Assembly (NCBI RefSeq): GCF_057098645.1
Contig: NZ_CM169472.1
DNA length: 64,000 nucleotides
Reading direction: 5' to 3' (one strand)
Part shown: in pieces, positions 12,001 to 15,000 of the stretch
How the letters are laid out: the number at the start of each line of letters is the position of its first letter
Position numbering within the stretch: the stretch's first letter is position 1
Program-made: the position numbers

Positions 12001-15000
12001 TAAAGTTTGGCTGCATCAAGCAAGGCTGTATGCGGGCCACCAGGACCATACAGATTGATATCAGCATAAGCAGCAGAAGACAGGAATATTAAAAAACCTG
12101 CCATTATGTTCCTCATAAAAAACTCCTTTTATTGGTTATCATGAAATAAAGTTATAAACACTACAAATAATATATATTACATCCAGATAAACTTATCCGA
12201 CTTTACCTCGTGCATAGCTTGTTATTTAAAGTCAACAAAATAAGGAAAATTATACGCATATTGAAGAGTATAAACCTTACATGTTGATTACATTTTTGTA
12301 ATCAACATCCTGTTTGGAATAGCCAGCCTTTAATGGATAACTATTTCTGACAATGCAATGAGTATAATCAAGTCCATCTTCCACTGAGAATTAGAGGCGG
12401 CATGCTTTTTCCGGCTCTTGCCGGATATCCGTAATTGTCCATAATCTGCAGATTTATACCTTCTGCATGACCTGTCAGCGAAAATTTGTCCGGTGTTTCT
12501 ACGGGAATGACATCAAAGTTACACGCACTCGCGTTACCGTGTAGACCTACTTTCCTGCACTTGCAAGATCACAGTGGTGTAACCGTAACAGGAATTTATT
12601 CTCTGGACCGGCAGTAAATCCCTGAGTGGCGTGGTTCCCATATCAATTTCCCGCCAGGCAGCCTCCATTGCCAGCGTACAGGCTGGAGCCATGACCTGCC
12701 CTTTAAATCTGGCCCGACCATCCCACCGGACGTGTTCTTCTCCCCTGAACTTAGGTACAGTCATCTCCAGTGGCACAAAAGTGTCAGCGCCATAATTTTT
12801 GACCGTTATCGCGCTACGGATATTTTGTTGACTGGTGAAAATCACCCCGCAGAATCAGGCTTATTCCCTTAACCTGGGCTTTCATCCTGACCGCCGCCTC
12901 ACTACGACCAATCAGACTGCCGATGCATTTTACCTTCATTGTTAGTATCATGATTTCAGGCCTGCACCATCCGCTCATTGCCCGGACTTCCGACAAATCC
13001 CGGCAACCATATCCCGGTGCTTGTTCAGCTCCCGCAGCGCGGCGCAGACTCGCTCCCACTTCTGGACATGATTCTTCGCCCTACGCAGTTCGCGATTTGC
13101 CATATGCAGCGATGGCAAAATCAAATCATCTTCTCGCGTTGCAGTAAACGATGGCAGCGACTGCACAATGTCCGCCACAGTTTCTGTTTTAATATCTTCC
13201 TGTGTTGCATCTTTCTGTACCGGTAACGCAACACCGACTGGCTGAGGAAAGGCTTTACCATCGGTTTCCGCTACCGATTCAACTTTCGGCTCTGCTGGTA
13301 AATTATCACCTGGTATGCAGTAACGAATTTTACCGTTCTGGTTTACGCGAATCAGACGACCTTTGCTGATTGCCATTGCCAGCGTTGAAGCAACTTTGCG
13401 GGATGTTGTACCGAACAGCGTAGCCAGTTCATCCGCCGTTTGTGGTCCGCGTTGTTCAATCGTCGCGGTTAAATCGCACTCTGAGATTTTCGCTTCTGTT
13501 GCCGTGGTGGTTTCTTCTGGCGCTGGCTGTTCCTGCTGAACGTTGTTATCAGCCACACGCCAGGTGTATACGCTTTTATCAACGAAGCCAGCCTTTTTCA
13601 GTTCCCACAGCTCGTTCAGTACTTCTTCACGACTGATATCAAGTCGCGCAGCCAGCTCTACCGACGTGGCTTTTCCCATCGCTTTCAGTGCGTCAAAAAC
13701 AGTCTCCATAAATTTCCTCCCGGTAAAAAATCACTTCTCAACTCAAACAAAACCAGCCGCTTTCCGGCGTTCATATTCCTGTTTCAGCAACTCAATTGGC
13801 GTTGGCCCCGACGGGCGTTTGGGGGCCGCCAGTTGTCGCCGGACTGGCGGAACGCTCAGGCCGTTACTAACATGCTTTGCCCATTTCGTCAGTTGCCGTT
13901 CTGCAAGCCGTTTTAATTCCCCTTCGGTCATCTGGCGCTCAATCCCCTTTGAACGCATCTCGAGGCAAATGTGATACAGCACAGGCTGAGACCACGGGTA
14001 CTTATCACTTCCGTCGTATCGCCAGGACTCATTGCGCCAGCGGCGGTACTCCTCCATCACAGCATCCACCGTCAGACCGAATGGATTGGCTCCGCTTTTC
14101 GAAATCAGTGCCACAAACTCAGCCAGGTCCGGAGGCCATGTTTCACCCGCCCGGCAGCGGTCCATGCACTGGCGGCAGACCTGCCGGATTTGCTGCTCAG
14201 TCATCGCGCCAATCTGTGCAATCCAGAGCTTCGATGGTGCGGCCCCGTTCTTCTGGGTCCAGCGGTTCGAATAAACCTCCCCCATGAGTTCCCACAGCTT
14301 CCAGGCCGTTTCCGTCGCTGATAAATCCGTTTTCACGTTCCCACTGCTCACGTGCTGCCCGAATTTCCTGAACTGCCCGTGATGCGGTGCCACCTGGTGC
14401 TGCTGCATGGTTTACCCCTTTGCTGACTGGTTTAACCTGCGCCCTGACGTGATTTACGTGACGGGCGAATTTCTGCTCCCACTGAATCTGCGTAAACACT
14501 TTCCCCTCCGCTGCCCAGTAGTCCCGGAAGGCGGCAAGTTCAGCAGGTGTAAATTCTGTCTCCGGCAAAGCCATCCCCCACAACGCAGCCCGTCGTCGAA
14601 AATCCCGTGACGGATACCAGCTATCGCTCATCGGGAATTTTCCGATGGGTTCGCTCAGGCCATACAGGAATACAGGGGGGGCTGCCTGTAACGACAAAAC
14701 TTCCTGCTCACTGGTCGGAGCACTCTCGCGTGCGTTATGTGTGGGGTTTAGATCTTTGGGTTCCTTTGGGTTCCGTGATCCGTTTTTGGGTGTCTTTGAT
14801 GGAAAATTTGGGTGTCTTTGGTTATTTTCCATGCAGCTAAGAGTTCTGTTTTTGGGTCTGTTTTGTGCTGAAACATAACCATTTTCGGTACTGTTTTTAT
14901 TAACAGCACCAATTTTACCCACCTTTAAAGACTCCCGTTTTTGGGTGTATTCAGGCTCGGCAACACTTTCTTCTACACCGATAAGTCGGTACACCACAAT

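Follow-up and report, generated by a model that had tools for sequence, protein, structure and literature searches.

Remnants of a phage DNA-binding protein gene and a PapH/PixH-like pilin gene at a probable recombination scar next to paa in the ompW prophage of EHEC

Results

Genetic context of the locus

The window, that is the whole stretch of 64,000 nucleotides that was analysed, is a lambdoid prophage at ompW of EHEC O145:H28/O157:H7 (PPompW, O-island 57). PPompW is the prophage described in O145:H28, and in O157:H7 EDL933 the paa gene was described as adfO (z2053), adjoining ckf/hokD (z2054). The features of the locus are listed in Table 1. At the upstream end, the TGA stop of an intact DUF1627 gene overlaps the ATG of a 54-aa ORF by 4 nt (ATGA). 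The DUF1627 gene is followed by a gene for a DNA-binding protein of 84-105 aa in all three related prophages, and in two of the three the start of this gene overlaps DUF1627 by the same 4 nt. Beyond it come further accessory genes and, in two of the three prophages, a Hok/Gef gene. An Rfam search over 10500-13800 returned sok RNA (11020-11169, 95.6 bits) as the sole match above threshold and none in 12534-13059; isrK and rsmX were sub-threshold matches in the same range. A scan for promoter and terminator consensus sequences gave counts not above those of shuffled controls.

Table 1. Features at the DUF1627-paa-hokD locus of PPompW (window coordinates)
Feature	Coordinates	Strand	Evidence and remarks
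Intact DUF1627 (ydaW-like) phage gene	12975..13709	-	Upstream neighbour; Pfam DUF1627 E=2.2e-92; phrog_630; RefSeq WP_000450692.1
81-aa ORF	12814..13059	-	GTG start; contains MKVKCIGSLIGRSEAAVRMKAQVKG
Spurious 5' extension of the 81-aa ORF (GTG 13059)	12979..13059	-	Out of frame within the DUF1627 gene
54-aa ORF, 5' remnant of a phage two-HTH DNA-binding protein gene	12814..12978	-	True start ATG 12978; RefSeq hypothetical protein WP_001505071.1
103-aa ORF, composite	12534..12845	-	GTG start; contains ACTLAMEAAWREIDMGTTPLRDL; 12845-12783 unrelated read-through, 12782-12615 true PapH-like frame (residues 24-79), 12614-12534 out of frame
Filler ACGGTCAAAAATTATGGCGCTGACA, 25 nt	12782..12806	-	Between backbone end 12807 and pilin start 12781
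PapH/PixH-like minor pilin pseudogene fragment	12311..12781 (~12311 end)	-	blastn; tblastn vs intact 195-aa gene
Perfect 12-nt inverted repeat, 4-nt loop, ATGTTGATTACA-aaaa-TGTAATCAACAT	12281..12308		Repeat search
paa module (~1 kb): AT-rich upstream region, paa/adfO gene (11358..12116), terminator-like hairpin (11351-11338)	11298..12320	-	blastn
hokD/sok toxin-antitoxin module; phage backbone resumes	10867..11261	-	blastn; Rfam; hokD CDS

The two ORFs do not form one gene

The original prediction had read two overlapping minus-strand ORFs as one protein with an HTH-like first part, interrupted by a frameshift near 12830, and had left open whether this was a decayed regulator or chance ORFs. 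Both ORFs, of 81 and 103 aa, were found where they had been placed; they share 32 nt (12814-12845), and the upstream end of the first overlaps the 3' end of the neighbouring gene as predicted, the neighbour being the DUF1627 gene. ORF size alone is not above chance, as this 5-kb stretch is overlapped by 54 ORFs with a length of 30 aa or more, and Pfam gave no match in either ORF. What does rise above chance is that segments of each ORF are homologous to real genes. A homologue with one continuous frame over the MKVKCIGSLIGRSEAAVR... and ...ACTLAMEAAWREIDMG... segments was not found in 5,426 E. coli genomes, 50,697 phage and 72,556 plasmid records or in two protein searches; DNA and protein searches instead matched two unrelated gene families with a sharp boundary, so that the single broken protein has to be abandoned. 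The region is decayed coding sequence, as suspected, although it is neither one regulator nor, given the homology to two families, a product of chance. The shared 32 nt are the second frame reading through into foreign sequence. A sequencing error had also been considered for the supposed indel. Among complete E. coli records, 572 cover at least 80% of the 901-nt query and 535 carry it at an identity of at least 99%, and this prevalence excludes a sequencing error or assembly artefact.

A truncated HTH gene

The upstream piece does derive from an HTH DNA-binding protein, the full-length relatives of 84-105 aa being annotated as such. The part of the ORF that extends over the DUF1627 gene is spurious, because relatives begin at the counterpart of ATG 12978, which overlaps DUF1627 by the same 4 nt. 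By tblastn, 12969-12808 matched a phage DNA-binding protein (E=1.7e-21). The 54-aa ORF shows 85, 74 and 69% amino acid identity to the N-terminal part of the syntenic DNA-binding proteins over 41-54 aligned residues, aligns solely to residues 1-62 of the family and matches phrog_30109, a PHROG of short proteins (E=6.3e-17). It terminates at a TAG (12816-12814) where relatives read CAG, 9 nt before the junction, and DNA homology to the relatives stops at 12807. In the family alignment, a 15-nt in-frame deletion has removed the conserved RQCAG segment, which is near-universal in the family and lies at the helix 1-helix 2 junction of the N-terminal unit. The ORF retains the N-terminal three-helix unit and the whole C-terminal HTH is gone. 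After ...GDFHQSAKY the family sequence runs on as QxDIELARQLH..., which is missing from the 64-kb window in every frame, as is the C-terminal half of the gene.

In full-length relatives, the C-terminal HTH (residues ~60-100) matches Sigma70_r4_2/HTH_23 and is the sole part that reaches the Pfam HTH threshold; NCBIfam gave no match for the annotated 54-aa ORF. A full-length relative was modelled as two three-helix units (pLDDT ~93 for the N-terminal unit), and Foldseek of this model against the PDB gave no match at E<=0.001. Weak Foldseek matches to bipartite or simple HTH domains (Tc3 transposase, IstA, Hin) are a weak indication of the fold class. The dN/dS of the remnant against its closest relative was 0.53, on only 10 changes. 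Start, coupling overlap and open frame of the 54-aa ORF are kept in >500 genomes; these carriers are near-clonal at the locus, and therefore this conservation says little about selection. In the allele of a chicken strain, an additional G at 12849 frameshifts the ORF. Coupling to DUF1627 may still allow translation of the 54-aa peptide, which is probably non-functional.

A decaying PapH/PixH-like pilin fragment

The downstream piece corresponds to residues 24-182 of a 195-aa minor pilin, with tblastn hits at 12782-12322 in three frames (E=2e-41). Compared with the intact gene (L003, 7931-8518), its nucleotide identity was 85.8% by BLAST and 88.9% over aligned bases. Unrelated sequence takes the place of the first ~76 nt, which would hold the start codon and signal peptide, and at the 3' end ~38 nt are missing. 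Within the fragment we observed a 10-nt deletion at ~12615, a CAG>TAG nonsense change at 12549-12547, a 1-nt deletion in a T-run at ~12518 and a 5-nt deletion at ~12382. The real frameshifts are all inside the pilin fragment and not near 12830, and the last part of the 103-aa ORF is the stretch that follows the 10-nt deletion. The deletion at ~12518 is present in the O145 allele and not in one O157-type allele or one chicken-strain allele that were aligned; comparison of alleles shows that lesions are still building up separately in different lineages. Independently, RefSeq annotates 12277..12809 as a pseudogene ('fimbrial protein; frameshifted; internal stop').

In P pili, PapH serves as the terminating and anchoring subunit; its structure is PDB 2J2Z. 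The intact 195-aa relative matches PapH (2j2z_B) with E=3.5e-80 over residues 24-195, and an 83%-identical relative of it was named PixH by one source. The intact gene is the second gene in pap-like operons of seven structural genes, between the genes for the major subunit and the usher; Pix and Sfp operons have been described with the same gene organisation. The fragment itself is flanked by the phage HTH remnant and paa and not by a chaperone-usher operon, and no homologue of an usher, chaperone, major subunit, adhesin or other pap-operon gene was found in the 64-kb window. The repaired 173-aa conceptual translation had no Pfam match even at E<=10, including Fimbrial (PF00419), which the intact relative passes with 32.3 bits against a cut-off of 25.6. 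Pilin and HTH homology were recovered solely by DNA-level and tblastn comparison with intact relatives. The dN/dS was 0.39 between the pilin fragment and the intact gene, a value that rests on few substitutions (51), 0.18 between intact copies and 0.07-0.08 for paa. The fragment is a dead orphan inside the prophage, and it would make no product, because start codon and signal peptide are missing, the frame is shifted three times and interrupted by one nonsense codon, and neither an usher nor a chaperone is encoded nearby.

Junctions and the paa module

In the blastn mosaic map, backbone homology extends to 12807, pilin homology covers 12781-12318, homology to paa plasmids covers 12320-11298 and the backbone begins again from 11211 or ~11261 (11211 and 11189 in the prophages L005 and L006, ~11261 in others). 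The 25-nt filler between backbone and pilin sequence is the actual recombination joint. The segment with paa and the pilin fragment is flanked on both sides by backbone, and relatives hold several other accessory genes at this place. All E. coli matches with >95% identity share the same architecture; the copy in H89 belongs to this same prophage, shortened by an IS-mediated deletion, and is of no further value as evidence.

The paa gene, named 'AcfC family adhesin Paa' in RefSeq, follows a region in which GC drops to 27% (12100-12299), and the terminator-like hairpin stands after the gene. The module is common to ETEC-type plasmids at 86-89% identity with different flanks; one of these plasmids, pCFS3246-1, also encodes the heat-stable enterotoxin gene sta1. 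The inverted repeat sits exactly at the start of the paa-module homology, and plasmid copies keep it with one or two changes. No pilin sequence is present upstream of paa in the plasmid copies L009 and L010. Two further repeats, a 13-nt inverted repeat (12230-12242/12821-12833) and 10-nt repeats common to 11217-11236 and the pilin fragment, are regarded as chance matches in a region of 1.8 kb.

Discussion

In this study, we find that the region is very probably not a gene but a recombination scar, in which leftovers of two unrelated genes lie together, one for a DNA-binding protein of a phage and the other for a subunit of a pilus. That one frameshift near 12830 would have split a single regulator gene whose N-terminus encoded an HTH is extremely improbable. 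The ORFs do overlap in such a way that one indel would merge them and the upstream part does come from an HTH protein, but the halves match unrelated families across a sharp boundary with a filler, the continuation expected for the HTH family is absent, the pilin homology begins at residue 24 of its own protein and the identical sequence is found in hundreds of genomes. Even less credence can be given to chance ORFs in a non-coding spacer devoid of gene ancestry: ORFs of this size are frequent here, and Pfam and NCBIfam find nothing in the ORFs or in the repaired fragment, yet DNA and protein homology to two gene families is highly significant. Negligible, too, is the probability that the pilin gene is otherwise intact and that its frameshifts arose through errors of sequencing or assembly. 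The 1-nt deletion does fall in a T-run, a typical site of such errors, and it differs between alleles; however, the other lesions are deletions of 10 and 5 nt and a nonsense codon, both gene ends are gone, and hundreds of independently finished genomes carry the identical sequence (100% in the top O145 records, 99.9% with a 1-nt length difference in O157:H7 records).

Potentially, only the pilin is dead and the 54-aa ORF still encodes a functional single-HTH protein, which might, for instance, modulate its full-length relatives in co-resident prophages. The start, ATGA coupling and open frame that persist across genomes, the match to phrog_30109 (E=6e-17) and the N-terminal unit, predicted as a confident three-helix bundle in the model of the full-length relative, would be consistent with this. 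Nevertheless, we consider it unlikely, for the ORF is devoid of RQCAG and of the sole part at the Pfam HTH threshold, a natural allele is frameshifted while the locus was not lost, dN/dS against the closest relative is 0.53 on 10 changes and the conservation across genomes reflects recent common ancestry. It is more doubtful still that the 54-aa peptide would act as a dominant-negative or decoy on its full-length relatives in the many lambdoid prophages co-resident in EHEC, or that the pilin fragment would serve as a transcribed leader that ties paa to phage early transcription.

For the recombination scar, we infer the following order and mechanism of events. An ancestral Qin/Rac-like lambdoid prophage would have carried the DUF1627 gene, then a small two-HTH gene, several accessory genes and hok/sok. 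Illegitimate recombination would then have exchanged the stretch from the middle of the HTH gene to just upstream of hok/sok for a cargo of ~1.55 kb, consisting of a fragment of a gene for a PapH/PixH-type pilus terminator subunit, truncated at both ends, and the paa (adfO) adhesin module. Most likely, the pilin fragment hitch-hiked with paa from an earlier context adjoining a pap-like operon. Co-transfer of the two is something that we can only infer, because a donor with paa beside an intact papH-like gene was not found in 5,426 E. coli genomes or 72,556 plasmids.

As a recombination scar the locus is ordinary, and the RefSeq annotation of public genomes already lists a pseudogene ('fimbrial protein') and a hypothetical protein of 54 aa here. 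Its reading is corrected here, which matters little beyond annotation hygiene: the 103-aa ORF, a 'hypothetical protein' in DDBJ phage records such as LC567822, and the merged frame should be replaced by a pilin pseudogene fragment and a truncated HTH gene. Published accounts of adfO in O157:H7 and of PPompW in O145:H28 do not discuss the two remnants, and a literature search on pixH and Z2052/Z2053 gave nothing relevant. The base-resolved map of the placement of the virulence-associated paa/adfO in PPompW/OI-57 could help to trace the origin of paa, as the orphan PapH-like fragment hints that paa was once located beside a plasmid-borne pap/pix-like fimbrial operon.

Three known systems can be compared with the locus. 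The pilin fragment is homologous to the PapH/PixH minor pilin of pi-group (Pap, Pix, Sfp, PL) chaperone-usher fimbriae across the pilin domain that it retains; in contrast to functional PapH/PixH, it is devoid of start codon, signal peptide and C-terminal end and carries three frameshifting deletions and a nonsense codon. The 54-aa ORF has the same position, directly after the DUF1627/ydaW gene, as the two-HTH proteins of phrog_323 ('transcriptional regulator, D5-like') and phrog_30109, whereas it is truncated after residue ~62, ends at a premature TAG and has lost RQCAG and the C-terminal HTH. Finally, paa is the same gene as the paa/adfO 'moron' cargo of O-island 57/CP-933O-type prophages, here flanked by the two remnants, which would be by-products of the acquisition of paa with no part in adhesin function.

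Results

The original prediction read two overlapping minus-strand ORFs as a single protein with an HTH-like N-terminus, broken by a frameshift near 12830, and took them for a possible decayed regulator or chance ORFs. Both ORFs are present, with a 32-nt overlap and exactly the peptides quoted for them, and the upstream ORF indeed overlaps the 3' end of its neighbor, a 244-aa gene for a DUF1627 protein (Pfam, E=2.2e-92). Neither the 81-aa nor the 103-aa ORF had a match in Pfam, and such lengths are frequent in this region: counted from 30 aa upwards, 54 ORFs overlap the 5-kb stretch. 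However, the two ORFs are not one frameshifted regulator but the junction of two unrelated gene remnants, which was made by the acquisition of paa.

Features of the junction region (window positions; mosaic segments from local blastn of the window against all fetched loci)
Feature	Position	Strand	Remark
81-aa ORF	12814..13059	-	GTG start
103-aa ORF	12534..12845	-	GTG start
DUF1627 gene	12975..13709	-	RefSeq
54-aa hypothetical protein WP_001505071.1	12814..12978	-	RefSeq
"fimbrial protein" pseudogene	12277..12809	-	RefSeq; flagged frameshifted, internal stop
paa	11358..12116	-	RefSeq
hokD	10867..11022	-	RefSeq
Mosaic: phage backbone	to 12807
Mosaic: filler, 25 nt	12806-12782
Mosaic: pilin fragment	12781-12318
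Mosaic: paa module	12320/12316-11298		86-89% identity to plasmid loci
Mosaic: backbone resumes	11211/11189, or ~11261 in other relatives		with sok and hokD
Pilin residues 24-79	12782-12615		tblastn, first frame
Pilin residues 80-114			tblastn, second frame
Pilin residues 115-161	12520-12380		tblastn, third frame
Pilin residues 163-182	to 12322		tblastn, second frame again
Pilin lesion			first ~76 nt with start codon and signal peptide lost
Pilin lesion	~12615		10-nt deletion
Pilin lesion	12549-12547		CAG>TAG
Pilin lesion	~12518		1-nt deletion
Pilin lesion	~12382		5-nt deletion
Pilin lesion			last ~38 nt replaced

A DNA search with 12800-13010 aligned positions 12943-12807, at 70-90% identity, with the 5' portion of "DNA-binding protein" genes of other E. 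coli prophages. Three related prophages carry such a gene (84, 103 and 105 aa) directly after the DUF1627 gene, with a 4-nt overlap at its start in two of them; more accessory genes follow, and two of the three have a Hok/Gef gene downstream. Since the ATGA overlap recurs in the window (12978-12975), the true start is the ATG at 12978, and the extension to the GTG at 13059 is spurious. The 54-aa product is 85, 74 and 69% identical to the three relatives, over the N-terminal ~62 residues only. DNA homology runs to 12807, and a TAG stop (12816-12814), where relatives carry CAG, lies 9 nt before the junction. In an alignment of 25 sequences the window copy is also devoid of the near-universal RQCAG segment, owing to a 15-nt in-frame deletion.

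This family is widespread in Enterobacteriaceae, with a typical length of 93-105 aa. Full-length relatives match Sigma70_r4_2, HTH_23 and HTH_7 in the C-terminal half only (one protein reaches 26.4 bits vs a cut-off of 25.7) and phrog_323, "transcriptional regulator, D5-like" (E=3.7e-25); the 54-aa ORF matches phrog_30109 (E=6e-17). Modelled with AlphaFold (pLDDT 85), a full-length relative forms two three-helix units (H9-18/24-31/35-45 and H63-74/79-86/90-101). PDB matches to this model are weak (best E=0.026), but DNA-binding HTH domains, among them the bipartite one of Tc3, make up many of the leading ones. The impression of an HTH-like N-terminus was reasonable, but what remains is an internally damaged N-terminal unit, and the C-terminal half was found nowhere in the 64-kb window. 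Coupling may allow translation of the 54-aa peptide, which is probably inert, a residual function being very unlikely. Another variant of the two-HTH gene, protein P0237 (85 aa, on 79 contigs), keeps the N-terminal unit and continues with unrelated sequence directly behind ...GDFRLSAK. The window copy is cut at this very position, suggesting that recombination in these prophages repeatedly breaks within the linker that joins the two HTH units.

Searched sensitively at the DNA level, 12277-12815 retrieved intact "fimbrial protein" genes of other E. coli (~85% identity) and, with weaker similarity, papH. In pap-like operons the intact gene (195 aa) comes second among the structural genes, preceded by the major subunit and followed by usher, chaperone, two further subunits and a 330-aa putative adhesin. 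One operon is chromosomal and one lies on an IncF-type plasmid beside integrase and RepB; a PapB-like regulator gene precedes the operon in one locus and follows it in the other. The intact protein passes Pfam Fimbrial, matches the PapH crystal structure (2j2z_B, E=3.5e-80, residues 24-195) and has an 83%-identical relative named PixH by one source. In both fetched loci, the 330-aa last structural gene (L003, 13174-14166; L004, 13070-14062), in tip-adhesin position, is labelled 'nuclease PIN' in RefSeq and had no match in NCBIfam; the gene probably encodes a PapG/PixG-type adhesin that was mislabelled.

Given the frame map and the lesions, the 103-aa ORF is a composite: 21 codons of foreign read-through are joined to 56 in the true pilin frame and 27 that are out of frame. 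The pilin fragment cannot yield a pilin, since start and signal peptide are missing, the frame is broken and the 64-kb window holds no pilus assembly machinery.

Based on the mosaic map, a cargo of ~1.55 kb has taken the place of the 3' half of the HTH gene and of the accessory genes found in relatives from there up to hok. Rfam matched sok at 95.6 bits; downstream of hokD, 10777-10858 gave a sub-threshold isrK match (24.9 bits vs a gathering score of 50, E=0.015). Just upstream of hok/sok, 11215-11238 form a perfect 24-bp palindrome, CCGATATGGGAATTCCCATATCGG, within sequence that some other prophages also carry upstream of hok, with homology from ~11261; there the palindrome lies under an annotated 'hypothetical protein'. 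The plasmid paa loci have flanks that differ from one another, and no pilin sequence was found in these flanks; in one of the loci the heat-stable enterotoxin gene sta1 is present as well. Upstream of paa the GC content drops to 27%, and homology of the paa module starts exactly at a perfect 12-nt inverted repeat with a 4-nt loop (12281-12308, ATGTTGATTACA aaaa TGTAATCAACAT). Two plasmids with different upstream flanks keep this repeat apart from one or two changes; it could bind a regulator of paa or mark a hotspot of recombination.

Discussion

An indel introduced by sequencing is excluded as the source of the broken frames, since the region is identical across hundreds of finished genomes and most lesions are multi-nucleotide. 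Over the 901 nt around the two ORFs, identity is 100% to E. coli O145:H28 chromosomes and to "PPompW" phage records and 99.9% to O157:H7, and 535 complete records match at ≥99%. The locus is genuinely decaying, and the process goes on. Both the O157-type allele and the 98.7%-identical chicken-strain allele keep the T at ~12518 that is deleted in the O145-type allele of the window. In the chicken-strain allele an additional G at 12849 shifts the frame of the 54-aa ORF, which RefSeq flags as a pseudogene in that strain. In the O157-type genome 2013C-4187, a 1-nt deletion at ~13229 makes the DUF1627 gene a frameshifted pseudogene. The pilin fragment is 89% identical to the intact gene over aligned bases (78% protein identity to the closest intact relatives after repair), with a dN/dS of 0.39 compared to 0.18 between intact copies; paa gives 0.07-0.08 against plasmid homologs, and the HTH remnant, when compared with its closest relative, 0.53 from only 10 changes.

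We can only infer that the pilin fragment was transferred together with paa, since the donor context, paa beside an intact papH-like gene, was not found among 5,426 E. coli genomes and 72,556 plasmids. The prophage of the window is PPompW, a lambdoid prophage integrated in ompW (PMC8112680). It corresponds to O-island 57 of EDL933, in which paa is named adfO (z2053) and adjoins ckf/hokD (z2054) (PMC8565820). The prophage and paa/adfO are well described, and both remnants are annotated in RefSeq; in a DDBJ phage record, unlike RefSeq, it is the 103-aa ORF that is listed as a hypothetical protein. This study adds only an explicit map of the junction and the recognition that the 54-aa "hypothetical protein" comes from a truncated two-HTH gene. 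The intact pap-like operons share the organization of Pix and Sfp, for which seven structural genes were reported.
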